Below are positions 16,353 to 63,173 of a stretch of 64,000 bases of DNA, one piece after another (positions within the stretch are counted from its first letter, which is position 1; each line of letters begins with the position of its first letter). The stretch comes from an uncultured Candidatus Poseidoniales archaeon. Lineage in GTDB: Archaea > Thermoplasmatota > Poseidoniia > Poseidoniales > Poseidoniaceae. The stretch is taken from NCBI GenBank assembly GCA_964587885.1, contig CAZPME010000008.1, positions 1-64,000 of the forward strand, read 5' to 3'. The translations under genes and the position numbers were made by a program. The notes under the pieces are model-generated. The model was given only the letters and a program-made list of their open reading frames with translations. It was not told the DNA's origin and ran no database searches.

Positions 16353-16358
16353 TGGCGG

Positions 16359-19418: not shown

Positions 19419-19476
19419 CTTACCCCTCCTCGCAAGTCAGAGAATCACTAATAGCGAAACCGGACTTAGACCTCAT

Positions 19477-49500: not shown

Positions 49501-52500
49501 CACTTACAATTCTGATAATACTTACACCTACCAAATTCGTAATGGAGAAGAAGTTCCAACTATCGGCCATGCCAGTATGATTGATTCAGTCATTGATGCA
49601 GCCACTCCAAATTCAGCATTAGAAGATACTAATTTAATGATTGGAAATGACTCAAATGGAGATGAAAAGCGTTCGATAATCGTCCTCGACCCAAGCCAAT
49701 TTCCACTTCCATCAGCGGCTAAGATTCATTCTGCAAGTGTTGGGTTATACATAGAAAATGTAAGGATGAATTCAGGCGTCCTTGTTACTAACATGAACAT
49801 AAGTGTTCATCCGATTATTACCTCTGGTTATACTCCCTTGGGCTCAACTTGGAATGAAGTTGCTAGTGGTTCAAGTTGGTCAGCGGCTGGTTTGCAGCCG
49901 GGAGTTGATTACGGCGCGGCAACTGGAAGTACGACTCTAGTTGCAACAGTCGGATTTGAGGGGTGGATTTGGCTCGACCTCTCACATTCGGGATTGGATT
50001 TGAACAATGCCCATGAATTTATTCTCATCGCTACGGGTCAAGCTTATCTTGATATTTCTCACAGCCAAGATAGTGATGTGGCGCACCGTCCGATAATGTT
50101 ACTCAATTATACTCATATTGACCACGTTACAATAACTCCAGGAAATGGTGCTAGCACTGATGCTGATACCGATTTGCAATATTCATACACAATGTATGAT
50201 GGAAATGGCACTCCAATCTCTGGAGTTATTGAGTGGGGTTCTACCTCTGGAACAATCGACAGCACGGGATTATTTGCTCCTGATCAAGCTGGAATGTGGC
50301 AAGTAAGTGCATGTTTCGGTTTGGTTTGTGACATAGTCACATTGTCGGTAACTTCTGGTTCACCAACCACGTGGGCTAATGTTTTCACTACCGATAGTGG
50401 TAGTTATACCATAGATGCTGACCAAGGGGTCGACTTTACTTTCACAATTTATGACCAGCATGGCAACGTTGTTTCTGGTCAAACCGTAACTGCTACTGCA
50501 ACTAACGGCTCGCTAACTGAGACTTCATCAGGTAATACCCATTCTTGGCATTGGGATGCTTGGGCTGTTGGCGCTCAAACCATAGAAGTAAATTGGGGTG
50601 CGCAGACACATTACCAACAGATAACCGTAGTAGCAGGACAACCGGTCTTGGTGACCATAGGTAACTGTGGTGATGATGATTTGAACGTACCCGCTGGTAC
50701 GACTTGTGCCTTTGATTGGGATGTTTTCGACTCCAAGGGCAATGATGTTGCTAAATCTGTATTGGGGCTTGTCACTTGGACGGCTGAAGAGCATAGCGGT
50801 AATGTGAGTCAAGGAAACTTTACTGCTGACAAGATAGGAACTTGGCAAGTAAACTTGACCAGTGCCTTTGGGCTTGATGCCAACACGACAGTTACAGTTA
50901 TCCATGGAGAGATTGATTACCTTGAGATAATTCCAAGTTCATTATTCGTCACAGCAGATGACCTCCTCTATCTCAACACTACTCGAGTAGATATTCGCGG
51001 CAATCGCTTGATGGTTGATTTGCCGGCTGAAAATTGGACCGTCATCAATGGTTGGCTAACTCCAGGTAGTAATGGCAGTCCTGCAATTTGGGAGCCTGAA
51101 ACCGTCGGTTCTAAGATATTGCGAGGTAATTATGGTACTGAGCAGACCGAATTAATTATCGCGGTATCGCATGGAATAATTTCCCAAATGGAAATCGACA
51201 TCACAACTCCAACTAATATGACTGCTGACGACCAAAGTCTGCTCAAATCATACGGTGTAGACAATAAGGGCAACCGTTGGTCAGTAAATGTCGAGTGGAT
51301 GATTTCTCAAGATCCATCCAACACCAATGATTGGCTTCACGGATACATTTCTGGTGAGGAAGAATCTACAGTGATTTTCAAACCGACTTATGTAGGAGAA
51401 TATAGTATTAGGGCGATTTACACTGAGTCCTCATCAGCATTAAATTTCATGATTTCAACCAATTATTCAATCACCCATGGGCAACTAGCTGATATTTCCT
51501 TTACCGCACCAAATGCATGTACTAGTGGGCCAGATGACGATCCACATTGGACCAATGATTGTGTATGGGAGATGACGGCAGATGAAAACATTCCATTTGC
51601 GGTTGAACTAGTTGACCTAAATGGAAATCAAATATCCGATGAGATCTTAACATGGACAGAAAATGGTAATGATGTATCTTCAGATATGGTGGATGATTCA
51701 TTTGTCTGGAGTGGAGTGAGGGATGAAGGTGAATATGTTATTCGCATTGCAAATGGGACTATTTTTGAAGAAATCACGGTAAATATTAGACATGGTAGAG
51801 CTCTAGTGGTTAACCATGTGGCAAGCGCAAATAGTGTTGAGGCCGGGCAATCATTGACGATCAAATTGACTGGAACAGATGTTGCTGGCAATACTTTCGA
51901 CCAAGATGTTACTTGGTCACATCCAACTGAAACAGTCGACAAGATTGGTGTCGGCGAATACATCTACAATTCCACCATGCAAGGAACGTATGACTTGGTA
52001 TACGAATTGCCGGGCGCCCAAACCGATATGTGGACGATTACTGTTGCTCACACCGACTTGTCACGCTTCGTTTTAGAACTTGATAAAATTTCACTTGAGC
52101 AACAGGCTGAAGTCACAATTACAATTAGTGCATTTGACCGCTTCGGAAATCCGGTGGCGGTTCCTACAGGCGATGCACTAATCGTCGAAGCGACTGGGCG
52201 CGGAACTGTATCATCGGTATCGGATGATACTACAAAATACAAGATTGAAACTCTAGATGAAGGTGAGCATACCATCACTGTGACAACTTTGGTAGCAGGT
52301 ATTATGGTAACATCTCAATCCACATACAACGTTACTGGAACCTTACCTGGATTCTTTGCTTCAGGAGGTCCACTATACTACGTGGCAGGTGGGTTGGGAA
52401 CATTTGTCATACTGGTTCTCTTCGTATTGGTAGTCGTTCTATTCCGCCGTAGCACTACTGGTTATGATGATGAAGACGATTGGGATGGGGATGACGAAGA

Positions 52501-52702
52501 TGAAGATTATCTTGAAGAAGATAAAGAACAGCCAGAAATCCCCGAAACCGAGGAAACCTCAACTTCTGAATCTTCAGATGGTGTCGAAGGTGATGATAGT
52601 TACCGTGTTGACGATGATGGCACTGAATGGTGGGAAGATGAAGCGGGCGTTTGGTGGTTCAAGGAAACTGGCGCAGAAGATTGGCAAGAATGGAATGAGT
52701 GA
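43589..52702 (+). CDS. Giant (3037 aa) membrane-anchored surface protein: signal peptide; about 7 DNRLRE-like domains alternating with FN3/Ig-like spacers; about 8 Big_2-like Ig domains; Gly-zipper TM; acidic cytoplasmic tail ending in a Trp-rich motif.
   Basis: Start GTG 43589 / ATG 43598 then 'ALTIVLLFLLADLISPSA'. Repeated 'DTW(V/I)..G...NYG....L.VG...(R/S)xLLxxDLSxLP.P......A.LxLY' units; Big_2-like 'GxxxxVxWxSTxGTIDxxGLFxA'; C-terminal 'YYVAGGLGTFVILVLFVLVVVLFRR' plus 'EAGVWWFKETGAEDWQEWNE'. Confidence 0.85.
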   Translation: MSPMSTASNYRNRRRQALTIVLLFLLADLISPSAIPSYELDQINSPSFVQMSDNASADSQIYSLSQNTNYGNEVSASIGPDEVGPGVSKMVISFPLNFSGAVDVASATMYLVCTTAADDKISTLFVSELTNSFDEMNVTWVNYNGTATWASPGASGASDHGDWEPPLVQTMNSTFSFNITSFVQSALSRGANSVDLLIAAHGAQYSCSTKEELVQANRPQILFVYAANSPAARGTILPTFVEDGDALMTGDFILAAETQPTITWSNLLGQNVEVQLSLASDFMTDSDSWWYFSSQNNLSFQFSGTTGQMELLSENELSNGTTMHYRMRSTNLNQVGDWSSGYFHLPDLQVTDNGNQTASVSIYPDDLGLSEKAISDTYSNNALSGGNGNYGGDSTVLVGMDSPSEDQYAYHGINPHLWGMHDNATMFQADLVLTRSSYNNDAVISFHSFDNSAWTESGLTMNSQDGSTAWTDGGRSNKEMAAIDAMWSNQTNSEFRVDLLTQTQVWLDTSSSTPLSIFSTVRGEYDQYSSSTNVEFYSSEDSSQSNLPYLELMYGWGSGTSPTAVELIDPADGVGVWTLNDHNLSGNTTPTLTWNGSEATSQSHDIIWQLSEGPEFRNITAEVNTVEDNDFTPGSGNYSLTGLDEGKTYAWRMQHVSFEGHHGEWTTNSFFVPSVTSTWLGGNDYQLTLSSGNSSVSGPDMPYCTDTYIDSGSPNDTYPDEGEIQVSYSTFSETAILFGCDMNSHFLPSGYAVSYANMRMKLSFHGGNPIVGAWDNTQSNWVAESANWNTFDGVNNWSQSGAKGSERGSLLSSNTLTSSFSSGDWVNWNITLNAQDAMRSDGSLDFIIGIVGAGSGGTRQALFDSSEQSTSSRPEVILVYSPGSNAKPNNPIPLSPANGSWSIIDGIEPAPDARPVLNWSYGTGVAVGGWSLQLDTTSTFDSGNLLSFASWNDNGFDLTNMSYTPQQDLSDGQIWHWRVRAVSTTNQLGDWSAFSHFLLPDITTWLIDSNTSAVEYHHHDALPSLHIPEFEDTWVKNSGANNGTSQGTDTVLKVGTLSDGSRATGMLRVPLSALPNPANAHVLKATLNLYPEWGSSESQHISIHSAMQAWNSSANGTTYDGVNNWSSAGGLGATDSGEMVDVNTIVGDSWAQYDVTELVQSATLTGNNHLSIMLIGDDASGLVTFTSVDSSSNRPWLNITWATGNSSQVTTTGSPNSPSAGSILWDTSSHALIPTTTPTLNWTHPNAGSVDDWRLFIWNNGSDEREGWTIHDTRESTTGFNIGALSWTSTSVQEAGRTYRWFVQPIIDDIYGPRSASLHYHLPAVMSGELNSTDAWLNVVEGSMVNDIAYPEVMSDTWINEGGQNLNYGNAANFTVGTSPSSSSLRSKALLEIDLSNLPIPQPFDVLEAELKLYRDGGQQSQMTVSISDLFLAFDENNATWNQADNGTNWSITGASGQLDSGLPVDIETITGSGWFSWDVSQLAQAALARGDQTMTLLIQSEEPLNASNSFHTFASSNNMNVELRPQLNLTLRSVNQWLPTDSSSLYPTNTQTMWNMSADLPSPMHDIVFSWNSTDTNATAQHFQMSSNPRFINPELFAMSNDSTTLDNGTFTNTGQRYSYNHSTDLMPIDEWIFWRVRTVQDYRIGNWSMVNKFRMPDFEGEDDGTGNLTLNLNRGTVFTNTSVLPLVPDTTLDSSSLSTNYGSSTALKLGAGASGSGEARILIEYDLNELPFPANMIPTSTILTLYRYGITGGQSLTVAAYPCSSFSESGASWNNAPTCSSSEITRTTLGVVPPTGYMEWDITSLAQSNIAAGNRTLTVMLAVIGTPGATHEFRSSEYSSVDERPNLIFDYVDNSQGITPPAQPTLLNPIDGDVLYDDSNWILQSATRPVLEWNAVANATDYILTIANATGQTKYRSWSTSGFGNSNFTLSTDLAAGESYEWWVQAVNGSIPGPSSSRWTFAIGNPINNTYNSDNTYTYQIRNGEEVPTIGHASMIDSVIDAATPNSALEDTNLMIGNDSNGDEKRSIIVLDPSQFPLPSAAKIHSASVGLYIENVRMNSGVLVTNMNISVHPIITSGYTPLGSTWNEVASGSSWSAAGLQPGVDYGAATGSTTLVATVGFEGWIWLDLSHSGLDLNNAHEFILIATGQAYLDISHSQDSDVAHRPIMLLNYTHIDHVTITPGNGASTDADTDLQYSYTMYDGNGTPISGVIEWGSTSGTIDSTGLFAPDQAGMWQVSACFGLVCDIVTLSVTSGSPTTWANVFTTDSGSYTIDADQGVDFTFTIYDQHGNVVSGQTVTATATNGSLTETSSGNTHSWHWDAWAVGAQTIEVNWGAQTHYQQITVVAGQPVLVTIGNCGDDDLNVPAGTTCAFDWDVFDSKGNDVAKSVLGLVTWTAEEHSGNVSQGNFTADKIGTWQVNLTSAFGLDANTTVTVIHGEIDYLEIIPSSLFVTADDLLYLNTTRVDIRGNRLMVDLPAENWTVINGWLTPGSNGSPAIWEPETVGSKILRGNYGTEQTELIIAVSHGIISQMEIDITTPTNMTADDQSLLKSYGVDNKGNRWSVNVEWMISQDPSNTNDWLHGYISGEEESTVIFKPTYVGEYSIRAIYTESSSALNFMISTNYSITHGQLADISFTAPNACTSGPDDDPHWTNDCVWEMTADENIPFAVELVDLNGNQISDEILTWTENGNDVSSDMVDDSFVWSGVRDEGEYVIRIANGTIFEEITVNIRHGRALVVNHVASANSVEAGQSLTIKLTGTDVAGNTFDQDVTWSHPTETVDKIGVGEYIYNSTMQGTYDLVYELPGAQTDMWTITVAHTDLSRFVLELDKISLEQQAEVTITISAFDRFGNPVAVPTGDALIVEATGRGTVSSVSDDTTKYKIETLDEGEHTITVTTLVAGIMVTSQSTYNVTGTLPGFFASGGPLYYVAGGLGTFVILVLFVLVVVLFRRSTTGYDDEDDWDGDDEDEDYLEEDKEQPEIPETEETSTSESSDGVEGDDSYRVDDDGTEWWEDEAGVWWFKETGAEDWQEWNE

Positions 52703-52778
52703 TTTCCCCTCTTGTAAAGAGGGGAACTTTTCTGCGTCGACTTCATTTGTGATGCCTCCCCTCGTCGCGTTGGTCGAA

Positions 52779-55460
52779 ATGTCGTTTGCGAAAAAGCATC
52801 GAGTATTGCCGACTACAATTGTCGTGTTTTTACTACTCTCAACTCTAATTACTGTGGTCATTCCTTCCACTAGTGCTGGCACCGTAGACCGTATCGAAAT
52901 CGACCAACAGCCCCCCATAATGCTTTCAGCAGATAGTCAAATGCAATTTACTGCAACAATGTATGATTCTTCAAATAATACCCTTTCGGAAATTGTTGAG
53001 TGGAGTGCTACCAATGGGTCAATCGACGGAGCAGGTTTGTTTACCCCATGGGCAACAGGGAATGTGTCTATCAGCGCAAATTCTGGGGTGGCATCGACAT
53101 TTGTCAACATCAGTGTTGAAGCAGGATGGCCCAGTTCCCTTACCATAGAATCGAATCAATCTGAAATCGGTGTAGATTCAACCGCTCAATTGACTGCCTT
53201 ACTTGCCGATGCTCGCGGTAATGAAGTTCAAGGCCACGCCTTGACTTGGTCTCCTTCCCAAGGTACAGTAAATGAGACAGGAGTTTGGTTTCCCGCTAGT
53301 GTTGGTGTAGCAAGCATTGAAGTGCATTGGGGTGAACTCTCGGCGACAATGAACATCACGGTAATTACCGGTCAACCTGCAAATTTGATACTCCCAACTG
53401 GTCTATCGGTACGCTATGGCCAGAGCATTACTATCGTGCCAGAAATTTATGATTCGCATGGTAATCTATTGTCTCTCGAAGATGCTGGTAGTCTGCAGTG
53501 GGCTGCAGATAGTGGTGTGATTTCTCAAACTGGGTCATTTACGGGTAATGCCGTCGGGATTTGGAATATTTCATGTTCAACTGCAAATGGATTATTCGCT
53601 ACAGTTGAAATTTCTGTAATCTCCGCAGCAATTGAGAGTTTGGAATTAGTTGCAGAAAACCGAGTATTCCGGGCTGATGAAGCGGTTGAAATTAGAGTCA
53701 TTCGAAGCGATGTTTACGGAAACGTCGAGGATATTTCTACCCCACTTTCAAATTGGTCATACCAATCGGGAGCACTTAGGTATGGAGAAAATGCTACTGA
53801 ATGGCTACCCACCGTAGTCGGCAATTGGACTCTTAGTGTTGTTAGTGAAGGATTTACTGCGAGCATCACAATTGAAGTCGTACACGGTTATGCAATTGAA
53901 TTATTATTGGTTACAGAAAATCAGAGAGTTAGTGCTGATGACGATGCAGTAATCCATATGCAAGCCCGTGATATTCGCAATAATCGTTGGATAGTTACCG
54001 GCACATGGGAAGCAGAAAATAGCCTTGCAGAATCGTGGCTTGCCTCGTTTGGGACATGGGCAAACTTTGCCGCTACTAAGACGGGAGAATGGCAAATAAC
54101 TGGTAGTTGGTTTGATGAGGAACAACAACAAATATTCTCTGACAATGTCACAATTGAAGTTTATGCTGGTGAATTATCAACCATTATTTTGCAGGGAGAT
54201 GGCGCCACAGTTTCAGCCGACGAGGTGCTAGATTTAGCGCCGACAATGTTTGATTCAGATGGCAATCAAATCGGCACGGTCTTGCTAAACTGGACTGTTG
54301 ATGGAGAAGACAAAACTACTGATTTCAGACTTCATCGCGGTGTCTATTATCCTTATTCGGTTGGGTTGCACGAAATCCGCGCCCAAGCCGCCTCAGCCTA
54401 TGCCAGTGTGATGATTCAGGTAACTCATGGTCAGGCACGCACATTAAGCATCAGTGTAGCCAACAATCTGTCGATCAATTCAGGCGAGGAAGGAGAGATA
54501 ACATTCACAGTTTACGCTCAAGATTTATCCGGAAATTCCTTCTTAGTCGACGAATTGACTTGGGATATTCCTGAATATGCTGGTGAGATTAGGGCTGGAG
54601 GCGATAGTGGTGAATGGATATTAAGCGGAAAGAAAGCCGGTGATTGGCGTTTCACGCTATATTCGGGAGATGCTCAATTTGACCTTTTGGTCAAAGTTAA
54701 TGCTGGTTTAGCGGCACGTATTGAAGTTGTCATTTCTTCGGATTATTATCATCAAGGTGACGAGATGATACTCGATGTGAGGGTTTATGATTCATTCAAC
54801 AATTCTCTCAAAGTAATACCTTCTGATATGACGGTATCCTCTACTGCCGGCCCAGCAAGTCACGTCAGCGAGGGTAGTTGGAAAGTGATGATGGATACAG
54901 GCGGTAGTGACCACGCTGTAACCGTACGTTATGATGAGTTAACCGAACAGAAATTCTTCGATGTACAAGGGGCCCTCTTAGGGGGTGCATTAGGTTCCTC
55001 TGATGCCGTAGTCCTTGGCGGTACGATGTTCATGGCCTTGATTCTCATTTTTCTTGTTTTAGCAATACGACGCGGACGTCGAGATGAAAATGCCACCGAA
55101 GGAGAGAAGCACTCACCTATTCTAGGTGATTCTACCCTTTCATCACAACCACCTGCGTCTACAGTTTCAGCTCAGCCGCAGGAAAACCAGCCTGAGGCGA
55201 CTGAAACTTCACAACCGGGCCAGCCTCAATCTGGTTCAACCTCTCCAGCCTCCACTTCCTTAGATACTGCTTCGGCTGCTTTGGAAACTCCCGCGCCAGC
55301 CGACCCAGCCAAAGAGGCTGCTCAAAGGGCCAAAGCCACAGGCGTTATGGTTGCAGCCGAAGGTACAACTCAGGGTCAATCGGGATGGTATTACGACACT
55401 ACTGGAACGTTGACGAATTGGGAAGTCGATGCTGAAGGAAGGTGGAATAGGATACAATGA
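52779..55460 (+). CDS. Large (about 893 aa) membrane-anchored surface protein: signal peptide, about 9 Big_2-like Ig domains, Gly-zipper TM, P/Q/S/T-rich cytoplasmic tail ending 'GQSGWYYDTTGTLTNWEVDAEGRWNRIQ'.
   Basis: ATG 52779 ('MSFAKKHRVLPTTIVVFLLLSTLITVVIPSTSAG') chosen because the track's 52464 start overlaps the upstream gene; Big_2-like repeats; 'LLGGALGSSDAVVLGGTMFMALILIFLVLAIRRGRR'. Confidence 0.8.
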   Translation: MSFAKKHRVLPTTIVVFLLLSTLITVVIPSTSAGTVDRIEIDQQPPIMLSADSQMQFTATMYDSSNNTLSEIVEWSATNGSIDGAGLFTPWATGNVSISANSGVASTFVNISVEAGWPSSLTIESNQSEIGVDSTAQLTALLADARGNEVQGHALTWSPSQGTVNETGVWFPASVGVASIEVHWGELSATMNITVITGQPANLILPTGLSVRYGQSITIVPEIYDSHGNLLSLEDAGSLQWAADSGVISQTGSFTGNAVGIWNISCSTANGLFATVEISVISAAIESLELVAENRVFRADEAVEIRVIRSDVYGNVEDISTPLSNWSYQSGALRYGENATEWLPTVVGNWTLSVVSEGFTASITIEVVHGYAIELLLVTENQRVSADDDAVIHMQARDIRNNRWIVTGTWEAENSLAESWLASFGTWANFAATKTGEWQITGSWFDEEQQQIFSDNVTIEVYAGELSTIILQGDGATVSADEVLDLAPTMFDSDGNQIGTVLLNWTVDGEDKTTDFRLHRGVYYPYSVGLHEIRAQAASAYASVMIQVTHGQARTLSISVANNLSINSGEEGEITFTVYAQDLSGNSFLVDELTWDIPEYAGEIRAGGDSGEWILSGKKAGDWRFTLYSGDAQFDLLVKVNAGLAARIEVVISSDYYHQGDEMILDVRVYDSFNNSLKVIPSDMTVSSTAGPASHVSEGSWKVMMDTGGSDHAVTVRYDELTEQKFFDVQGALLGGALGSSDAVVLGGTMFMALILIFLVLAIRRGRRDENATEGEKHSPILGDSTLSSQPPASTVSAQPQENQPEATETSQPGQPQSGSTSPASTSLDTASAALETPAPADPAKEAAQRAKATGVMVAAEGTTQGQSGWYYDTTGTLTNWEVDAEGRWNRIQ

Positions 55461-55469
55461 GGTGCGAGA

Positions 55470-58304
55470 ATGCGCAGAATATGTATCATTATCATCGCCA
55501 TATTACTGTTGTCGGTATTTACTACGGACCCAAAATTATTACAATTGGAAAACCCAAGAGATTTTGCTTTGCCAGGTTGCCCTGAAGAGCCCGCTGCTGT
55601 GTCAATAGAAATCACGCATTCTGGTTCTGGTTCGGTTCCAGCCGACCAACATTTGCAATTGACTGCTATTGTCAAAGACTCCAGTTCCCAAACACTTGGC
55701 GTTTTTCCAACTTGGGGAGTATCGAATGGTTCAATCACCTCAGATGGATTATTCACACCATTAGCAACTGGAGAGGTAGAAGTGTGGGCGTGTATCGGTG
55801 AGGTCAATCAGTCGAAAACTCTCACAGTGTTACAAGGTGAGACGGTCTCCGCAGAATTACAATTGTCTGATTATCAGATTACTTCCGATGAAGTTGTGCA
55901 ACTCTTGCCCAAGAAAATCGATAGCAAAGGAAATCGGGCTGATACCTTTGTCCCGACTGAGAATTTTTCCTTACCAGTGGGTAGCAATATCTCAGGTGGT
56001 CAAATATTGAATTGGTTTCCTGGTCCAGTTGGAAATCATACAATTTCTGCAAATGTATTGGGCTATTCGGTAAGTGTTCAGGTCAACGTTTCTTTTGGGC
56101 AAGCGGTGGGGATTGGGATTGAATCATCGTCAAATGAAATAACCTCGGATCAATCGCTTGAATTAGCGCTATCAATTTTGGACGGCAAGGGAAATACTCA
56201 ACCAATTATTGGTGAATGGTACTCAAGAAATAATACCGAATTGCCGCTATCAATAACCAATACGAGTGCATTAGTCGAAGGAAATGTGGCTGGAATATGG
56301 CGTGTAATTGCCAATTATTCTGGTGCCGAGACCAATGGCTCGACCTGGACTACCTATCGCGATATTACCGTAATACATGGTGCCTTAACGGCGACAAGGA
56401 TTGACGGATTCATCATTAGTCGCAGTGGCCAAGGTAATGACCTTGGACAACTTAGCGGCACTCTCCAAATGAATTCAGATGATCAATTAGTTTTATCACC
56501 GCGCCTTGAAGATGCCGACGGGAACATTCTCCCAACTACTGGATTAACTTGGAAATTGGAATCCGACAACATCGCATTTCCCGAAACTTCGTCTAACAAC
56601 TCATTTACCTTCTCACCGGTGCAAACTGGAAATTATATTGTGACTCTAACTCCTGCAGAGGGCATCCCCGAGCGTTTGACTATTGAGGTTAGGCATGGAG
56701 AAGCTGAAGCGATTGAAGTGTATTCAGGGGCTAGTGAAAACCTCGTGGTTTCAGTAGGTCAAAATCTAAGTTTTGAGGTGTTTGGTGTCGATAGAGACGG
56801 CAATAATTTCCCCTTGGATGTCGAATGGTTTATTCCCGAACACACGGGAAATATCAGCAATGGTTCACTTGGAGTGGGAAATTATGTCTTTACTAGTTCG
56901 CGTGACACTCCAATTAGAATACACACATTAAAAGCAATAACAGCACTCGGAAAACACGATGTTCTTGTCGATGTTAGAATTGGCATATTGCATCATTTAC
57001 AGATTGATTATTCGCCATTGGAAGGTGTTCAGGGTGAAGAGTTACAGATTACTATCACCGGAAGAGACCTAAATGATAATCAAATTCCGATTGCCTTGGA
57101 TGATGTAATTTTGACCTCATCGGCGGGAACTGCCGAATATAGGAATGGCAAGCATTATCTTTACCTTGAGGAGAGTGGAGTACAACATCAGATAACCGCT
57201 GAATACGAAGAATTGCCGCCAGCAATGGTATTTATCGATATTCAAGCGACGATTTTTGGTGGAGTCCTAGGTTCGTCGGAAACGGTTATCATCGGGGGGA
57301 TTGCGATATTATCGGTGATATTACTCGCTCTCGCTGTGATGATTTACAAGATATCGGGCCGGCGAAAAAAGAGTGATGATGAATTAATTGAGGAGATGGT
57401 ACAAACTAATGAAACATCACAATCTCCAGAATTATCTTCACCTGAATCTATTGGAGATTCATCGGGACTTAGGCCTGAAACTGAAATTTCCTTGCCTGTA
57501 ATAATGCCATTGAATCTAGTACCACCACCACCCCTAGCAAATATGCCAGCAATCGCATCTGTACCACAATCAGCAATGGTCCCACCAGTTGCCCAGCCCT
57601 CTCAGCAAATATCTCATGGTGGATTGCCTCCTCCCCTACCTGCTCCAATGTTGGCTCATCCACCCGCACCCCAATCAGCAACCTCTCTTTTGCCACCAGT
57701 TGTTCCAACTTCCATGCCTGCAGGAAACATGTTTCAGCCTCACCCACAGGAATCACCTCAAGAGGTAATGGTAACCCAACCCCAAGCAGAAGTAGACCCA
57801 AACTCACATACTCCAGAACTTCAAGTTCCAACCCAATCACTATTGCCAACATCACAAGAATCCGATTTAGGTCAAGCAACGATTGATTTGTCAGATTCAC
57901 TTTCTGCGTTGGGGCCTATAGGCATGGTTGAGGTATTGGATGAACCAATTACTGAAGCAGAACTACCAATTGAAACTGAGCAACAAGCCCAAGAACAATC
58001 CGCGCTAGAAAATGAAAGTGAACCGGAAACTGAGCCTGAATCACCTGCTGTAGCCGATATTGAAGACCCTTTCCCAGCCCCTTTATTGGAAACCGATGGC
58101 GGCTGGGGTGATGATGACCCGTTCGGAGATTGGGGTAGTGGTGTGGCCAATTCACGGGCCCTTGGCTTGATTGATACCTTCAATGGGCCAATGTCGAATG
58201 ATGGAGTACTTCTAGAGCCGGAACAAGGTACCATTCGTGGTCAATCGGGTTGGTACCGAATGACTGATGGAACAAGGGTTGAATGGAAGTACCCAACTCA
58301 ATAA
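55470..58304 (+). CDS. Large (944 aa) membrane-anchored surface protein, a paralogue of the preceding gene: signal peptide, about 7 Big_2-like Ig domains, Gly-zipper TM, long proline-rich cytoplasmic tail ending '[21 protein letters not shown]'.
   Basis: '[17 protein letters not shown]' signal; '[25 protein letters not shown]' Big_2 motif; '[40 protein letters not shown]'; 10-nt gap to the upstream gene. Confidence 0.85.
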
Positions 58305-59173: not shown

Positions 59174-60844
59174 CTACTCTGCTTCGGAAATAATGCCAAT
59201 GAAGTCGCAGAATTCGTCAACGTCAATGGCTCCATCATTATTTGCATCAGCTTCATGGAAGTACATTCTTATTGCAACATGTTCATCTGATTTTAATCCC
59301 AATCCAGCTATTGCTTTTGTGAATTCTCTCAAATTTATGCTTTTGTTATTATTTTTATCTGCGGCTTCGAATGCTTCATGTAGTCGCATTTTTTCGACTT
59401 TATCAGGTTCCGAAATCATCATTTTGAAAGTATCCCAAGGTGTTATTTCAGGATTAGCGTTCTTTTGACCATATGTTTTGTATATTGCAATGCCTAAAAC
59501 TACTGCTACACCTGCACCAATAAATGATTTTGAACCCATCAAAATAAGCAAAATAATACCAGATATAATTCCCATTATTTGGGTGAATGGGTAAAGCGGA
59601 GATTTCCATACTGGATTATACCATGAATGCGACTTTGCGGACCTACGTAGAACAATTACGCATGCATTGATAACGATGAAAATCATAATTTTGAAACCGG
59701 ATGCTAGTTCTGCTACATCATGAACTGGCAGAAAGATGATTGCTAAAGCCATAGCCAATCCAGTACCAATGATTGCGATATGGGGTGTTTGGAATTTAGG
59801 GTGCACGTTTTCCAGTGCTTCTGGGAGGAGATTGTCTCGAGCCATAGCAAAGGGAAAACGGGATGAGGCCATTATTCCTGCTAGTGCCATTGAAGTCATA
59901 GTCAAAACCGCTAGTAGTGCCGCAATGATTCCCATATTGCTGCCGCCTACAGCAGTTGCGAAAATGTAGATCGGGTCTTCTCTAGCATGCCCATCGCCTT
60001 TCATGAATCCACTCGGATCTACAGTGGCGGCCATTATGAGGGTAATGAAAACGTATAATGCGCAACTAATCAACAATGAGAGCAAAATTCCATACGGTAT
60101 GTTCCTACTTGGGTTCTTTATCTCTCCACCTACTGCCGCAATTTTTGTTACACCTGCATATGATACGAATACGAATGCTGAAGTTGTTGCTATTGCTTTC
60201 CAATCGGAACCAAATGCCTCTTTCGAACTGACTGCCTCCCAATTCATGTCCATAGTTAGTGCAGCATAAATTGAGATTGTGAAAAGAAAGGTAATGGCAA
60301 TCAACACAATTGGAGCTTGTATTTTCTTGATTCTCTTAACTCCCAATATGTTGATGACGACAATTAGTATCAAAAGAACCATTGCAGCAATTTCTATGTT
60401 TATGTTGACTCCAATAATTTCCTCTAGAACCCAAAGGTATGCTTTAAATCCAATTAGTGCGAAAGCAGATTTGAGCATGAAATTTGCCCACAAACCTAGG
60501 CCCGCAATAGTACCAAACATGGGTCCAAATGTCCTTTCTACATAGACATATGAACCACCCGATGACGGCATTGCTGTTGCTAGTTCTGCCTTTGAAATCG
60601 CTCCAGGCAGGACAACTATTGCTGCCAGCAGGTAGGCGATCCAAATGCCACCTACTGGTACAGTGTCACCTCCCATCTCCAGCATTGCCAGTGCAGGTAG
60701 TACGAATAGGCCAGAACCTAACATTGCCGAGAGTGAAATTATTACAACAGAAAATAGTCCTAATTTCCTCTCTAAAGTGTCCGATACTTTATCGATTGGT
60801 TTCAATAAAGTGTCAATAATATTGGAGACAGTTAATCTAGTCAT
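59174..60844 (-). CDS. APC-superfamily amino-acid permease carrying a C-terminal pair of EF-hand calcium-binding motifs.
   Basis: About 12 TM helices of APC type ('GSGLFVLPALAM...'); C-terminal 80 aa with two canonical EF loops 'DKNNNKSINLREF' and 'DANNDGAIDVDEF'. Confidence 0.8.
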   Translation of the reverse strand: MTRLTVSNIIDTLLKPIDKVSDTLERKLGLFSVVIISLSAMLGSGLFVLPALAMLEMGGDTVPVGGIWIAYLLAAIVVLPGAISKAELATAMPSSGGSYVYVERTFGPMFGTIAGLGLWANFMLKSAFALIGFKAYLWVLEEIIGVNINIEIAAMVLLILIVVINILGVKRIKKIQAPIVLIAITFLFTISIYAALTMDMNWEAVSSKEAFGSDWKAIATTSAFVFVSYAGVTKIAAVGGEIKNPSRNIPYGILLSLLISCALYVFITLIMAATVDPSGFMKGDGHAREDPIYIFATAVGGSNMGIIAALLAVLTMTSMALAGIMASSRFPFAMARDNLLPEALENVHPKFQTPHIAIIGTGLAMALAIIFLPVHDVAELASGFKIMIFIVINACVIVLRRSAKSHSWYNPVWKSPLYPFTQIMGIISGIILLILMGSKSFIGAGVAVVLGIAIYKTYGQKNANPEITPWDTFKMMISEPDKVEKMRLHEAFEAADKNNNKSINLREFTKAIAGLGLKSDEHVAIRMYFHEADANNDGAIDVDEFCDFIGIISEAE

Positions 60845-60894: not shown

Positions 60895-62277
60895 CTAATT
60901 ACTGAATATTGCAATAACCTTCATTTCAACGGCGATAGGTGTTGGAAGGGAACTAATTTCCAATGTGGTCCTAGTTGGCTGAATTTCTCCAAAAAATTCT
61001 GCATATACTGAATTGTATTCTGCAAAATCTCTATCCATATTAATCAAGAATGATGTAACATCTACAACACTCTCAATACCCAATCCTGAATCTTCAAGTA
61101 TTCTTTTGATGTTTTCAATACATGCAATAGTTTGTGCTTTCATATCATAATCCAATAAGTCACCCGAAGAATCTCTTACAGGTCCACCTGGGATTTCATT
61201 TGAATGAGGTTGTCTAGGGCCCACTCCTGAGAGATAAAGCAAATCCCCAACTTTCCTTGCGTGAGGATATGCACCCACAGGTTTTGGTGCATTTTCAGAA
61301 TTCACTAGTCCATCATCTGTAACTTTGGAAATCTCATCGCTATTTTCTTCATCGGCATCTGCATTTTCGACATCAAGGACATCCCTATCACCAGAGTAAT
61401 ATTCTACATCATCTTCATCGTATTCCTTGTCTCCAGAACTGTTCGGGTTAGGGCTCAAGCAAACTACTGCTCCGCCAGCTCCGTGTAATGCCTCATAGGC
61501 TAGGACCTCACCTTGCAGATTATTGGTTTGACCATTTACTCCCGAAAGGAACCACATCGGTTTGAAAGAAACCACTTTTTGCACCCGGACTTGACTGTGA
61601 ATCTGACGTGATAATTGAGCTACATCCTCGACCCTTCCTTCGGATAAGAATTCAAGAATCTTCTGATTCCACTCATCATCTTTGAGTGAATGAATCTTGT
61701 CGTCTTGGGGAGAAATAGGTTCGGTAAACATTCGATTAGACAGGCTCATTGCACAGATGATGGCAACCTTGCGGCCAGTCTTTTCTATTGCATCGAGACA
61801 AGATTTCGCTAGAACAATTGTTTCAGCCCGATTGGAATATACATTGCTTGAAACGATGCTAACCGGCAAGCGATTATCTGGATTAAGTAAACTCACTGCT
61901 ACTACCGAACCGACATCGATAGGAAATCCGTAATAATTTACGCCGCGACTATCAAGTCCGCGTTCTCTATTGGAGACATTCCACGCTTCGGCTAATGCGA
62001 CATCGACATTGAAGTCATATGGCATTGACCCCAAGTCATGAAAATCTGCATCGACTAAAGTCCACTTTGGATTGGGGTCGGTAATCAATTGATGACCGAT
62101 AATACTTGGCCAGGTAGTTGAATAAATAATGATTGAATCTGCACCGCTGTCGATAATGCGTTGACGTAATTCTTCAAATCCCTGACGTAAACGCATCCAA
62201 CCTTCATTTTGCTCGGCTGCTAATAGTGGGTGGGGGTGGACTGGCACTATTGCTGACATTACTACTTCGCCACTCAT
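60895..62277 (-). CDS. Fusion protein: N-terminal LigB-type (class III) extradiol-dioxygenase-like domain, an acidic linker, and a C-terminal RidA/YjgF-family domain.
   Basis: N-terminal 'VMSAIVPVHPHP...SIIIYSTTWPS' LigB-like; C-terminal 'PVGAYPHARKVGDLLYLSGVG...TRTTLEISSLPTPIAVEMKVIAIF' RidA signature. ATG 62277 overlaps the upstream stop as ATGA. Confidence 0.65.
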   Translation of the reverse strand: MSGEVVMSAIVPVHPHPLLAAEQNEGWMRLRQGFEELRQRIIDSGADSIIIYSTTWPSIIGHQLITDPNPKWTLVDADFHDLGSMPYDFNVDVALAEAWNVSNRERGLDSRGVNYYGFPIDVGSVVAVSLLNPDNRLPVSIVSSNVYSNRAETIVLAKSCLDAIEKTGRKVAIICAMSLSNRMFTEPISPQDDKIHSLKDDEWNQKILEFLSEGRVEDVAQLSRQIHSQVRVQKVVSFKPMWFLSGVNGQTNNLQGEVLAYEALHGAGGAVVCLSPNPNSSGDKEYDEDDVEYYSGDRDVLDVENADADEENSDEISKVTDDGLVNSENAPKPVGAYPHARKVGDLLYLSGVGPRQPHSNEIPGGPVRDSSGDLLDYDMKAQTIACIENIKRILEDSGLGIESVVDVTSFLINMDRDFAEYNSVYAEFFGEIQPTRTTLEISSLPTPIAVEMKVIAIFSN

Positions 62278-63173
62278 ACAAATCCCTCCTGAGAATAACA
62301 AGGCCATTCAATGAGTACATTGCCGGTACCGATAATTGAACCATAACCGTGGACGATGGCTTCGTATTCAGGATAATCAAGGGCAGCCAGTAACCAAGTC
62401 AATGACCCACCATCGGTTTCACTGACCGCCTGTTCGGTAAACTCTGGCATCAGGTCATGGGCTTCTCTAGTCCGACCGGTACGGAGTAGTTCGATCATTT
62501 TCATATCCCACAGATAGAGATGATGGCTAGTAATGTGCTCTTTGCTCATATCCTCAGGTACTTCAGATTCGGTGGTGAAGTGGCGGTGTGATAGTGAATT
62601 GCTGGCAATGACCAAGGCACGCTTACCGGATTTTTCAATTGCTCTGGCTGTTGCACGACCGAGTTGTGCAGTCATCTCTTGCATCACTTCGACCGAGTAA
62701 TAATGACGTGAACGATTGCTGGAAATGCACACGATTGGCTTGTCCCAAGCTGGGCGAGTTAGGTGGCAAGAAGTGATGGTGCCATAATCAACACGGAAAT
62801 CAGGATTCTCCATCATTTTCACCGCCAAGCCATCGGCTGCGGCTTCATCGTGTATTGCTTTAGACAATTCTACATCGACTTCAATATCATAATTGTAGCG
62901 AAATAGGTTGGGGAATATAGGGTCTACAGATAGTGATTGAAAATTTGGTAAGCCGAGAAAATGAGTTCCAACATAGGTTTGCCAGTGGGGTGACATGATA
63001 ACGATGACATCGTAATCTTGGGCATCTAGATTGACCCGCATACGCTCATATGCCCAGCGTAGATTTTCCCATCCACATTCGGCAATTGGCTCGTTTTGGG
63101 GAGGGTTTTCAGCATAGACCAAATGAGGCGGATGTGGAGCAATTGCTCCTGCGACAATTTTACCTTCGGCCAT
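62274..63173 (-). CDS. LigB-type (class III) extradiol ring-cleavage dioxygenase subunit-like protein.
   Basis: 'GKIVAGAIAPHPPHLVYAENPPQNEP...VIVIMSPHWQTYVGTHFLGLPN' LigB-family pattern. Start ATG 63173 preferred over the track's upstream alternative start (63266). Confidence 0.65.
   Translation of the reverse strand: MAEGKIVAGAIAPHPPHLVYAENPPQNEPIAECGWENLRWAYERMRVNLDAQDYDVIVIMSPHWQTYVGTHFLGLPNFQSLSVDPIFPNLFRYNYDIEVDVELSKAIHDEAAADGLAVKMMENPDFRVDYGTITSCHLTRPAWDKPIVCISSNRSRHYYSVEVMQEMTAQLGRATARAIEKSGKRALVIASNSLSHRHFTTESEVPEDMSKEHITSHHLYLWDMKMIELLRTGRTREAHDLMPEFTEQAVSETDGGSLTWLLAALDYPEYEAIVHGYGSIIGTGNVLIEWPCYSQEGFV

Follow-up and report, generated by a model that had tools for sequence, protein, structure and literature searches.

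Ring cleavage of the 2-aminophenol 1,6-dioxygenase type has the same regiochemistry as that catalysed by 3-HAO. Described enzymes of this type are AmnBA and CnbCaCb, known from Pseudomonas sp. AP-3, Comamonas testosteroni CNB-1 and the ARO microcompartment of Micromonospora rosaria (PDB 8ihg, 3vsg-3vsj, 7txy). Genes for these ARO enzymes often lie away from those of the lower pathway, and an upstream precursor, not free 2-aminophenol itself, is considered the natural substrate (PMC10470539). The product of ring cleavage, 2-aminomuconate 6-semialdehyde, cyclises spontaneously to picolinate (PMC3790839), while 2-aminomuconate has a half-life of about 160 min (bioRxiv 10.64898/2026.06.05.730449). 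The latter is the substrate of 2-aminomuconate deaminases (AMDs), RidA-fold proteins with an insertion, Lp2, that corresponds to Ala49-Pro59 of AmnE (PMC6742747). The AMD of Aspergillus flavus accelerates the deamination of 2-aminomuconate, not that of 2-iminopropanoate, with earlier work cited for bacterial AMD (bioRxiv 10.64898/2026.06.05.730449).

Here we describe a pair of genes in a stretch of 64,000 nucleotides from an uncultured Marine Group II archaeon (Poseidoniales), referred to below as the window. We consider it highly probable that they encode a two-subunit enzyme of the 2-aminophenol 1,6-dioxygenase type together with a fused AMD, and that these form the core of a shared gene set likely degrading kynurenine.

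Gene arrangement and host

The features of the locus are listed in Table 1. As the initial annotation had read them, the two LigB-family genes are adjacent and overlap by an ATGA; both are on the minus strand. Sequence inspection showed that, in the stretch tgtATGAgtg, the ATG of the fusion gene occupies positions 62277-62275 and the TGA of the amnB-like gene positions 62276-62274, and that an aggaggg motif is located 7-13 nt upstream of the fusion-gene start (62284-62290). A longer, GTG-initiated amnB ORF reaching to 63266 was rejected, since homology begins at ATG 63173; this ATG was taken as the start because the alignments with CnbCb and AmnB run from residue 1 to residue 1.

Table 1 Features of the dioxygenase-deaminase locus, with positions counted along the window.
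Feature	Position	Strand	Evidence
amnB-like gene (ORF A)	62274..63173	(-)	299 aa from ATG (MAEGKIV...)
ATGA start/stop overlap of the two genes	62274..62277	(-)	read off the sequence
Fusion gene (ORF B), AmnA-like + linker + RidA-fold	60895-62277	(-)	460 aa
amnA-like domain, putative non-catalytic alpha subunit (aa 1-275)	61453..62277	(-)	phmmer, Foldseek
Acidic, low-complexity linker (about aa 276-322)	61312..61452	(-)	35% Asp/Glu, pLDDT about 28-30
RidA-fold domain, AMD clade (aa 323-460 + stop codon)	60895..61311	(-)	PDB, motifs
APC-family amino-acid permease with C-terminal EF-hands	59174..60844	(-)	Pfam AA_permease + EF-hand_7

The archaeal host presumed by the initial annotation is borne out by genes for DP1, RFC and aRF1/Pelota-type proteins and by close relatives, which are all Poseidoniales MAGs. 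The remainder of the window consists of unrelated genes, and the window contains no gene for the dehydrogenase, luciferase-like monooxygenase (LLM), AsnII, short-chain dehydrogenase (SDR), cyclase, tryptophan 2,3-dioxygenase (TDO), 3-HAO, ACMSD or kynureninase. A promoter and terminator scan with bacterial signal models, which are uninformative for an archaeal host, gave counts at shuffle level.

The dioxygenase subunits

The product of the amnB-like gene, the beta subunit, matches Pfam LigB (2.4e-22) and, in phmmer searches against the PDB, CnbCb (3vsg_B, 8.5e-109), AmnB (8ihg_A, 1.6e-108) and 7txy_B (2.7e-100). The similarity to AmnB/CnbCb spans residues 1-291, with 55% identity to CnbCb. 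Matches to other LigB subfamilies were far weaker (HpaD-type 8iq8, 1.6e-08; NCBIfam MEMO1 model, 0.03), and no DODA or MEMO structure was among the PDB matches of either LigB domain at E < 0.01; an identity as MEMO1, DODA or HpaD was rejected on these E-values. In the alignment, the beta subunit keeps the iron ligands H14, H63 and E252 as well as H196 and Y130, which are invariant or present in at least 191 of 192 archaeal and bacterial homologues. We take the iron site of CnbCb to be His13, His62 and Glu251, with His195 as the catalytic residue; these align with H14, H63, E252 and H196. Judged from its sequence, the beta subunit is an orthologue of the catalytic subunit AmnB/CnbCb of 2-aminophenol 1,6-dioxygenase, its substrate specificity being extrapolated from the 55% identity to characterised enzymes.

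In a midpoint-rooted neighbour-joining tree, the archaeal AmnB sequences form a single clade. We name no donor for them, because the sister group in this tree, formed by the two PDB sequences, is not trustworthy. We also observed that many AmnA and AmnB homologues are systematically misannotated, carrying the name of tRNA-modification proteins at NCBI.

The N-terminal part of the fusion protein (Pfam LigB, aa 14-268, 4.4e-15) matches the alpha subunits CnbCa (3vsg_A, 2.7e-39) and 8ihg_B (2.1e-36) in phmmer searches against the PDB and is 32% identical to CnbC alpha. When the predicted structure of the fusion protein, a monomer model, was compared by Foldseek, the best matches were 7txy_A/C/E, 3vsg_A and 8ihg_B (TM 0.81-0.83); the model matched the RidA fold as well. 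The positions of the beta ligands are occupied by T55, N181 and K234, indicating loss of the metal site in the alpha domain, a trait it shares with bacterial alpha subunits. The resemblance to the alpha/beta pair of 2-aminophenol 1,6-dioxygenase noticed in the initial annotation is thus upheld for both proteins (8.5e-109 for beta, 2.7e-39 for alpha, TM 0.83): by E-value and fold, AmnB and AmnA are the relatives of the two domains rather than MEMO1 or DODA, and only beta keeps the His/His/Glu site and the catalytic His, which alpha has lost just as CnbCa has.

The alpha domain is joined to a RidA/YjgF domain (Pfam Ribonuc_L-PSP/RidA, aa 328-457, 2.3e-25) through an acidic linker, in agreement with what had been read from the sequence at the outset. 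A 54-residue stretch (aa 272-326) consists of 35% Asp/Glu, and the linker is predicted to be disordered (pLDDT ~29 across aa 298-320). In 127 homologues it measures between 24 and 100 aa, and its acidic character is confined to the archaeal ones.

Distribution and gene neighbourhood

The fusion was found in at least 221 species-level Poseidoniales genomes and also in bacteria, including the cultured Oligoflexus tunisiensis; bacterial relatives belong to Bdellovibrionota, Planctomycetota, Acidobacteriota and Chitinophagaceae. Many bacteria and these archaea have a set of genes in common, although in varying order, which comprises an SDR, LLM, a class-3 asparaginase-like hydrolase (AsnII), the dehydrogenase, AmnB, AmnA and AMD. 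The fused type, SDR-LLM-AsnII-ALDH-B-A::AMD-cyclase, occurs in Oligoflexus tunisiensis, a Chitinophagaceae MAG and metagenome contigs, the unfused type, SDR-LLM-ALDH-B-A-AsnII-AMD, in two loci (L111, L115) and partially on three others (L113, L114, L116), and two bacterial loci (L091, L106) carry ALDH-AmnB-AmnA::AMD only. Bacterial and metagenomic clusters often additionally contain a kynurenine-formamidase-type (KynB) cyclase and sometimes TDO. LLM gave a weak Pfam match, a best E of 0.005 against the PDB and no match to NCBIfam models, and was assigned to no known subfamily. The dioxygenase-deaminase fusion as such is no archaeal peculiarity, being widespread in bacteria.

In the archaea, the gene set is broken up by unrelated genes (panB and genes for a LON-substrate-binding protein, PAP2 and a small membrane protein). 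The aminomuconate-semialdehyde dehydrogenase gene, which the initial annotation had named as a companion to look for, was found four genes upstream, a short distance beyond the window, on a contig whose encoded fusion protein shares 98% identity with that of the window. Its seven best PDB matches are all 2-aminomuconate 6-semialdehyde dehydrogenases (top 4u3w, 1.5e-150), and an ALDH homologue was detected in 64 of the archaeal loci. On the other side, 50 bp downstream of the fusion gene and on the same strand, lies the permease gene (NCBIfam amino acid transporter, 5e-62), the immediate downstream neighbour in 66 of the 82 archaeal loci; a bacterial-type scan, applied here to an archaeal host, found no terminator-like site in the gap. 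We infer that the permease is a candidate importer of the substrate.

Genes of the lower meta-cleavage pathway (4-oxalocrotonate decarboxylase, 2-keto-4-pentenoate hydratase, aldolase, acetaldehyde dehydrogenase) were found neither within 10 kb in the 82 archaeal loci nor in the Oligoflexus-type operons. Some archaeal loci contain an alpha/beta hydrolase (HGGFW...GHSAGG) beside the SDR, which was considered as a replacement kynurenine formamidase of the eukaryote type; this found no support, as the protein matches Pfam BD-FAE/Peptidase_S9 and no kynurenine formamidase is among its PDB matches.

The fused deaminase domain

The best PDB match of the RidA domain is the 2-aminomuconate deaminase 6izh (5.4e-25); like those of the beta subunit (8.5e-109) and the alpha domain (2.7e-39), this match to a solved structure is far stronger than chance would produce. 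The identity of the domain amounts to 44% to AmnE and 57-61% to stand-alone AMDs of kynurenine operons. With these proteins it shares a 12-13-residue Lp2 insertion, YPH, RTT and Lys453. According to the alignment, the window domain and every one of its homologues, whether fused, unfused or from kynurenine operons, have the Lp2 insertion, whereas PH0854, ST0811, TM0215 and TTHA0137 do not. Lys453 stands where RidA has Glu120 in all of 127 homologues, and YPH replaces YSQ. In a neighbour-joining tree, the domain groups with the stand-alone deaminases that classical kynurenine operons encode; AmnE is placed beside them, and generic RidA falls outside this group. By these residues and motifs, the domain carries signatures of 2-aminomuconate deaminase, not those of housekeeping RidA.

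The core enzyme would act as an Fe(II)-dependent extradiol dioxygenase, in which the beta subunit holds the iron and opens the ring beside the hydroxyl to yield 2-aminomuconate 6-semialdehyde. The dedicated aldehyde dehydrogenase would convert the semialdehyde to 2-aminomuconate, which the fused deaminase would hydrolyse to 2-oxohex-3-enedioate and ammonium. In this order of reactions the fusion joins non-consecutive steps, because in the canonical pathway the dehydrogenase step comes between those of the dioxygenase and the deaminase; the fusion would hold the first and third enzymes of a stretch with unstable intermediates together at a fixed 1:1 ratio.

Another order would let the fused domain act directly on the dioxygenase product, converting 2-aminomuconate 6-semialdehyde to 2-hydroxymuconate semialdehyde and ammonia before ring closure to picolinate can occur. 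The hydroxy compound would then be the substrate of the dehydrogenase, and the fusion would join consecutive steps. This agrees with the observation that fusions usually join consecutive steps, with a semialdehyde that is far less stable than 2-aminomuconate, and with the best NCBIfam model of the dehydrogenase, which is 2-hydroxymuconic semialdehyde dehydrogenase. However, the clade of the domain acts on 2-aminomuconate and includes stand-alone members in operons without AmnBA, unfused clusters have another gene between amnA and the deaminase gene, and the seven best PDB matches of the dehydrogenase are aminomuconate-semialdehyde enzymes throughout, so that we regard direct action on the semialdehyde as unlikely.

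The possibility, raised in the initial annotation, that the RidA domain has a general housekeeping role, deaminating imines and enamines to guard against reactive by-products, and is no pathway enzyme is disfavoured by our data and appears very improbable. The RidA-family fold and the conserved Arg (R436) are indeed kept, and the match to archaeal PH0854 nearly equals that to AmnE (6.6e-25 vs 5.4e-25). Yet the domain falls below the NCBIfam RidA-subfamily cut-off (TIGR00004, 93.6 bits vs 106.25), its insertion, YPH and Lys in place of Glu120 are features that AMDs have and generic RidA lacks, and it is found together with the dehydrogenase and the dioxygenase. Moreover, AMD and housekeeping RIDA activities are not interchangeable (bioRxiv 10.64898/2026.06.05.730449).

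Link to tryptophan and kynurenine breakdown

TDO adjoins the cluster in three loci (L113, 8e-89; L107; L121) and is located ~3.7 kb away in another (L085). Classical kynurenine operons (L163, L160, L134) have the order SDR-ALDH-DUF520-AMD-3HAO-ACMSD-KynB-kynureninase, and a further locus (L143) reads TDO-SDR-ALDH-AMD. The SDR, ALDH and AMD of the classical operons are 49-61% identical to those of the cluster. Because classical kynurenine operons share the SDR, the dehydrogenase, AMD and the cyclase with it, the cluster appears to be an alternative route for kynurenine that passes through 2-aminophenol, and the gene set most likely degrades tryptophan-derived kynurenine via this compound. For the archaea, the link to tryptophan rests on orthology with the bacterial clusters, because tryptophan dioxygenase, formamidase-type cyclase, kynureninase, 3-HAO and ACMSD genes were found neither within 10 kb in the 82 archaeal loci nor in the window. 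The suggestion of aromatic ring cleavage in an archaeon stands with regard to the 2-aminophenol-type reaction, whereas its context points to tryptophan/kynurenine catabolism and not to xenobiotic aromatic amines.

A possible, and more tentative, version of this route would bypass 3-hydroxykynurenine, 3-hydroxyanthranilate and ACMS, with the window genes as its core. Marine Group IIa archaea would import kynurenine through the adjacent permease, and LLM would insert oxygen into the kynurenine aryl ketone in a Baeyer-Villiger-type reaction. The product would be the 2-aminophenyl ester formed with the side-chain carboxyl of aspartate or, should an O-to-N acyl shift follow, N4-(2-hydroxyphenyl)asparagine. 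The class-3-asparaginase-like hydrolase would split this product into L-aspartate and 2-aminophenol, which AmnBA, the dehydrogenase and the fused deaminase would convert to 2-oxohex-3-enedioate and ammonium; the SDR may then reduce 2-oxohex-3-enedioate towards 2-oxoadipate.

A biosynthetic role has very little to recommend it by comparison with degradation. The semialdehyde would cyclise to picolinate, or the enzyme, as a non-homologous replacement of 3-hydroxyanthranilate dioxygenase, would turn 3-hydroxyanthranilate into quinolinate for NAD. The regiochemistry would be that of 3-HAO, no gene for ACMSD was found in the vicinity of the archaeal genes, and picolinate arises during aminophenol turnover in Burkholderia (PMC3790839). 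Against this, the dehydrogenase and deaminase that consume the open-chain product are co-conserved, the deaminase even being fused, and AmnBA clusters are without kynureninase and KMO, which are needed for 3-hydroxyanthranilate. Least probable of all is a xenobiotic module (for nitrobenzene, chloronitrobenzene or industrial aminophenol) from pollutant-degrading Proteobacteria such as Pseudomonas AP-3 and Comamonas CNB-1: although the characterised relatives come from such strains and the upper-pathway enzyme set is identical, the module is conserved in the genomes of at least 221 open-ocean archaeal species, with archaeal sequences that form one clade, has relatives across the bacterial groups named above, is without the lower meta-cleavage pathway that the canonical cluster on Ensifer plasmid pC possesses, and is linked in its clusters to tryptophan dioxygenase and kynurenine-pathway genes.

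Degradation of kynurenine via 2-aminophenol would apparently be a widespread, undescribed variant of tryptophan/kynurenine breakdown. Searches for the fusion, for the cluster, for Marine Group II combined with aminophenol, extradiol or kynurenine, and for kynurenine combined with 2-aminophenol or Baeyer-Villiger returned nothing relevant in the literature covered, most subscription journals lying outside it. The gene set, which combines the classical ends of the kynurenine pathway with a different middle in several bacterial phyla, suggests that accounts of tryptophan catabolism have been missing a branch. Marine Group II archaea, which rank with the most abundant archaea of the plankton, have a diet that is largely inferred, and we know of none that has been cultured. 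A conserved catabolic module of bacterial type, presumably acquired from bacteria, gives them a predictable class of substrates, with 2-aminophenols, most likely derived from tryptophan or kynurenine, as candidates; the tentative route from kynurenine, if true, would provide a defined substrate for uncultured Marine Group IIa.

Comparison with known systems

The locus shares with AmnBA/CnbCaCb the beta-then-alpha arrangement of LigB-fold paralogues, a full His/His/Glu site with catalytic His in beta and none in alpha, and a pathway that also has its own semialdehyde dehydrogenase and a deaminase of the RidA type. It differs in the fusion of alpha to the deaminase, in its host, an uncultured marine archaeon, and in the position of the dehydrogenase gene, which is located upstream and not between amnA and amnD. 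Moreover, decarboxylase, hydratase, aldolase and acetaldehyde dehydrogenase genes are not nearby, and the partners are LLM, the asparaginase-II-like hydrolase and the SDR instead. The deaminase domain has the RidA fold, Lp2 insertion, YPH/FPH, RTT and Lys in common with AmnE/AmnD of Pseudomonas sp. AP-3 (6izh), NbaF and the Burkholderia and fungal AMDs. Whereas those proteins are free-standing and measure ~140 aa, this domain forms the C-terminal part of a dioxygenase alpha subunit, so that a domain that forms trimers or hexamers is attached to an enzyme of the alpha2beta2 type.

With the bacterial kynurenine pathway, the gene set shares the KynB-type cyclase, the AMSDH-type dehydrogenase, AMD and the adjacent SDR at about 50-60% identity. 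In place of kynureninase, 3-HAO and ACMSD it contains LLM, the asparaginase-II-like hydrolase and AmnBA, and the clusters annotated with Pfam showed no KMO; 2-aminophenol would take the place of 3-hydroxyanthranilate as the intermediate. The ARO microcompartment of Actinobacteria likewise keeps dioxygenase, aldehyde dehydrogenase and deaminase physically together (PMC10470539). The fusion of a catalytically dead subunit with a deaminase may thus represent a third way to co-locate enzymes of reactive intermediates, besides operon clustering and the actinobacterial microcompartment: co-localisation is achieved by a protein shell in the ARO system and, at the locus described here, which has no shell genes, by covalent fusion.

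Two overlapping genes for a probable ring-cleavage dioxygenase with a fused deaminase

We analyzed an amnB-like gene (ORF A) and the fusion gene that follows it (ORF B; see the table). Pfam detected a LigB domain in both products, and the start of ORF B overlaps the stop of ORF A as ATGA in the sequence 'tgtATGAgtg', with an aggaggg motif 7-13 nt upstream of this start. The two adjacent, overlapping LigB genes of the initial annotation were thus correctly recognized. So was the acidic linker joining the downstream one to a RidA/YjgF domain: Pfam assigns residues 328-457 of the ORF B product to Ribonuc_L-PSP (RidA), and Asp and Glu make up 35% of the interdomain linker. In the AlphaFold model, linker residues 298-320 have a pLDDT of about 29 and are predicted to be disordered. 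Among fusion homologues, linker length (24-100 aa) and composition vary, which fits a tether better than an interface with defined structure.

In PDB sequence searches, the ORF A product matched the characterized beta subunits CnbCb (3vsg_B, E 8.5e-109) and AmnB (8ihg_A, E 1.6e-108) as well as the Micromonospora enzyme (7txy_B, E 2.7e-100), while the next LigB subfamily, the HpaD type, reached only E 1.6e-08. It is 55% identical to CnbCb. H14, H63, E252, H196, and Y130 align with CnbCb His13, His62, Glu251, His195, and Tyr129, the first three of which we take to be the iron ligands according to the numbering of the CnbC and LigB structures. All five positions are invariant or conserved in 191 of 192 archaeal and bacterial homologues. 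Judged by its sequence, the ORF A product is closely related to the subunit of 2-aminophenol 1,6-dioxygenase that performs catalysis, the beta subunit.

For the N-terminal 275 residues of ORF B, alpha subunits were the best matches (CnbCa, E 2.7e-39; AmnA, E 2.1e-36). A Foldseek search with the ORF B model (mean pLDDT 70) likewise returned alpha chains first (7txy_A/C/E, 3vsg_A, and 8ihg_B; TM 0.81-0.83). Both LigB domains therefore side with AmnA/AmnB; a MEMO1 identity was rejected for ORF A, for which an NCBIfam MEMO1 model gave E 0.03. The iron ligands, complete in the beta subunit, are replaced by T55, N181, and K234 in the alpha domain. This pattern is kept across the family and parallels the ligand loss in CnbCa, which is metal-free. 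Taken together, sequence, fold, and context indicate a catalytically competent beta subunit and a catalytically dead alpha subunit.

Coordinates of the features in the window
Feature	Position	Strand	Length	Remark
ORF A, amnB-like gene	62274-63173	minus	299 aa	start ATG, MAEGKIV...
ORF B, fusion gene	60895-62277	minus	460 aa	directly after ORF A
APC-family amino-acid permease	59174-60844	minus		directly after the fusion gene in 66/82 archaeal loci
PfkB sugar kinase::KDPG/KHG aldolase fusion	26811-28346	minus	511 aa	
GH77 4-alpha-glucanotransferase::phosphorylase-like region fusion	16359-19418	minus	1019 aa	
Giant ORFs	62-8131, 19339-23991, 43589-52702, 52464-58304	plus	944-3037 aa	

The RidA-fold domain belongs to the 2-aminomuconate deaminase clade

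The initial annotation placed the C-terminal domain in the family that includes 2-aminomuconate deaminase (AMD) and offered, as an alternative, the detoxification of enamine/imine by-products. The best PDB scores were nearly equal for 6izh (5.4e-25) and archaeal PH0854 (6.6e-25), so that the E-value alone cannot separate the domain from generic archaeal RidA. Residue-level comparison settles its membership in the AMD clade. Like AmnE, the Pseudomonas sp. AP-3 enzyme with this activity, the domain has 12-13 additional residues in loop Lp2, an insertion described as unique to AmnE (PMC6742747). In the alignment, a Y/F-P-H motif replaces Y-S/A-Q of RidA, R-T-T follows the conserved Arg, and K453 occupies the position of the conserved RidA Glu120; YPH and K453 were present in 127/127 fusion homologues. 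Moreover, the domain scores below the curated NCBIfam RidA-subfamily cut-off. In a neighbor-joining tree it clades with stand-alone deaminases of kynurenine-pathway operons (57-61% identity), next to AmnE and the RidA protein of the Ensifer amn cluster, with generic RidA outside. The insertion, YPH, K453, and the low RidA score speak against a generic detoxifier. Along the same lines, a recent preprint shows that the AMD of Aspergillus flavus cannot take the place of human housekeeping RIDA, nor RIDA that of the AMD (bioRxiv 10.64898/2026.06.05.730449). Sequence, fold, and context thus mark the C-terminal domain of ORF B as a member of the AMD clade that is attached through a flexible tether.

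Host and distribution of the fusion

DP1, an RFC small subunit, and a protein of the aRF1/Pelota type, all belonging to archaeal replication or translation, are encoded in the window. The window also contains two other gene fusions (see the table), and next to the GH77 fusion gene lie an alpha-amylase and an ABC transporter of the maltodextrin type. Several giant ORFs, which combine repetitive and probably extracellular domains with C-terminal membrane anchors, fill about one third of the stretch; one homologue carries a CBM96.

In the protein collection, 2557 relatives of the fusion protein were found, and Poseidoniales or 'Euryarchaeota' MAGs are the source of the best-named ones. A species-level scan with one genome per species found the fusion in at least 221 genomes, among them the first MG-II genome (CM001443.1), and all those named to family are Poseidoniaceae (MGIIa). 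The AmnB tree unites the archaeal sequences in one clade. The fusion also occurs, at 40-47% identity, in the cultured Oligoflexus tunisiensis, in one MAG each of Chitinophagaceae and Acidobacteriota, and in many metagenome contigs. AmnB-type partners from Bdellovibrionota, Planctomycetota, Acidobacteriota, and Sericytochromatia are 66-76% identical to the AmnB of the bacterial-type locus L083. The fusion is not confined to archaea and is probably not archaeal in origin.

The transcriptome of the marine protist Diplonema japonicum (EukProt, P0122) also contains a LigB::RidA fusion, with 54% identity to the protein of the window, which reflects either contamination or a transfer between diplonemids and archaea or bacteria. 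AmnA-like domains also lie inside proteins of 680-1030 aa (P0182, P0192, P0205; Rhodospirillaceae, MYF07529.1) whose annotation reads alpha/beta hydrolase or ABC permease fusion. The dead alpha subunit apparently tends to fuse with other partners.

Public annotation names some relatives '2-aminomuconate deaminase' or 'RidA/aromatic ring-opening dioxygenase'. Many LigB subunits are named 'tRNA U-34 5-methylaminomethyl-2-thiouridine biosynthesis protein' by NCBI (e.g. L088 10001-12402; L092 7470-9325; P0285-P0395), which looks like a systematic misannotation of AmnB/AmnA-type proteins that hides these clusters.

A conserved gene set surrounds the dioxygenase

We called and clustered the ORFs of 82 archaeal loci and compared cluster order. 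The usual order is luciferase-like monooxygenase (LLM) - class-3 asparaginase-like hydrolase (AsnII-like) - aldehyde dehydrogenase (ALDH) - (LON-substrate-binding protein) - panB - small membrane protein (opposite strand) - amnB - amnA::AMD - APC permease with EF-hands; in the lineage of the window, panB follows the permease. The ALDH gene, four genes upstream of amnB and past the window end, was read from a 93.8-kb contig with a 98%-identical fusion protein. Its seven best PDB matches are all 2-aminomuconate 6-semialdehyde dehydrogenases (AMSDH; best E 1.5e-150).

In Oligoflexus and the Chitinophagaceae MAG, the genes form a tight operon, short-chain dehydrogenase (SDR) - LLM - AsnII - ALDH - AmnB - AmnA::AMD - cyclase, in which the cyclase (PF04199) belongs to the KynB kynurenine-formamidase/isatin-hydrolase family. 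In tblastn with Oligoflexus queries, six of the seven genes have orthologues in archaeal loci (SDR 43-51% identity, LLM 40-48%, AsnII 58-63%, ALDH 41-49% and up to 67% in partial matches, AmnB 54-62%, fusion 39-47%), the cyclase being missing. In some MGIIa loci (L005, L008, L009, and others), the SDR orthologue lies ~3-4 kb downstream of the fusion on the opposite strand and adjoins a BD-FAE/S9-type alpha/beta hydrolase (HGGFW, GHSAGG); a role of this hydrolase as a stand-in for the missing formamidase was not supported. When the bacterial fusions served as seeds for a metagenome scan, more fused operons were recovered, and an unfused, reordered set, SDR - LLM - ALDH - AmnB - AmnA - AsnII - AMD, occurs in L111 and L115 and partially in L113, L114, and L116. 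In the error-rich long-read contig L085, the fusion ORF (571 aa, 9883-11598) seemingly continues into a KynB-like cyclase segment.

Recurrence of the same gene set despite changing order argues for functional coupling rather than inherited synteny. Sequence, fold, and context identify the AMSDH-type dehydrogenase as dedicated and the LLM, AsnII-like hydrolase, and SDR as co-inherited. Homologies, ligands, AMD motifs, and the ALDH support the aminophenol-type dioxygenase-deaminase module proposed initially for this archaeon. We consider it likely that the genes encode a 2-aminophenol-type ring-cleavage dioxygenase, its alpha subunit fused to an AMD, that works with the upstream ALDH.

The APC permease has a C-terminal EF-hand pair, unusual for a prokaryotic transporter, and in L001/L002 its place is taken by another transporter-like protein, of 480 aa, that has a comparable EF-hand tail. 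Conserved directly downstream of the fusion gene, the permease may import kynurenine or some related amino acid; this putative association is specific to the archaea.

A possible link to tryptophan catabolism

The metagenome scan also yielded many stand-alone deaminases 54-65% identical to the fused Oligoflexus domain, several of which, where flanks were long enough, sit in classical kynurenine operons (Pfam, tblastn). These operons read SDR - ALDH - DUF520 - AMD - 3-hydroxyanthranilate dioxygenase (3-HAO) - ACMSD-type amidohydrolase - cyclase - kynureninase (L163, L160, L134), AMD - 3-HAO - (ACMSD) - cyclase - kynureninase (L122, L170, L171), or tryptophan 2,3-dioxygenase (TDO) - SDR - ALDH - AMD (L143). 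The DUF520 protein is kept between ALDH and AMD there (L163 9232-9717; L134; L160; L172). In AmnBA-type clusters, a full-length TDO (E 8e-89) immediately follows AMD in L113, TDO immediately precedes LLM in L107 and L121, and in L085 it lies ~3.7 kb from the cluster on the other strand (15321-16434). No TDO or cyclase was found within 10 kb in archaeal loci. Kynurenine monooxygenase, part of the textbook classical route, was not seen in these kynurenine-operon and AmnBA-type loci.

Both cluster types thus have entry (TDO, KynB) and exit enzymes (AMSDH, AMD, SDR) in common, whereas the middle consists of kynureninase, 3-HAO, and ACMSD in the one and of LLM, AsnII-like hydrolase, and AmnBA in the other. 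Both middles must yield 2-aminomuconate semialdehyde, which AmnBA can only form from a 2-aminophenol. Provided that the aminophenol-dioxygenase::AMD reading holds, a role of the cluster in tryptophan/kynurenine catabolism appears somewhat favored.

By analogy with the established amn, nba, and kynurenine pathways, 2-aminophenol would be converted to 2-aminomuconate semialdehyde, then to 2-aminomuconate, and finally to 2-oxohex-3-enedioate and NH4+. Type II Baeyer-Villiger monooxygenases of camphor catabolism belong to the luciferase family, and kynurenine minus its aryl group leaves the carbon skeleton of aspartate. Hypothetically, LLM might perform a Baeyer-Villiger-type oxygenation of kynurenine to a beta-aspartyl aryl ester or anilide, which the AsnII-like protein might hydrolyze to 2-aminophenol and aspartate. 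In the AsnII-like protein, the Ser-x-x-Lys, Ser-His, Asp-Gly-Cys, and Lys-x-Gly-Ala-Asp motifs known from Rhizobium etli class-3 asparaginases are retained, with CSGEH in place of CSGKH. Three enzymes could then stand in for three or four as a tidy substitution. We regard this specific Baeyer-Villiger/asparaginase chemistry as a tentative and rather doubtful proposal.

Comparison with known systems

Our literature search, whose coverage excluded most subscription journals, returned no description of the AmnA::AMD fusion, the seven-gene cluster, or aminophenol cleavage in Marine Group II. The enzyme families are well known. The host, the fusion, and most of all the conserved gene set lead to a substrate hypothesis that can be tested in an abundant, uncultured group of archaea, and to a candidate new branch of tryptophan catabolism.

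The canonical amn cluster on Ensifer plasmid pC contains 4-oxalocrotonate decarboxylase, hydratase, and aldolase, whereas none of these was found near the archaeal genes. The cluster SDR matches the enoyl-reductase branch model PF13561 and could, speculatively, carry 2-oxohex-3-enedioate on towards 2-oxoadipate by reduction; the missing lower pathway would then be accounted for. As for the fusion, it may serve to fix a 1:1 stoichiometry and to hold the deaminase beside the dioxygenase. In Actinobacteria, the dioxygenase, the aldehyde dehydrogenase, and the deaminase, the three early enzymes, are enclosed together in a microcompartment (PMC10470539). Encapsulation there appears to meet the same need that the archaeal and bacterial fusions would meet by a covalent tether.
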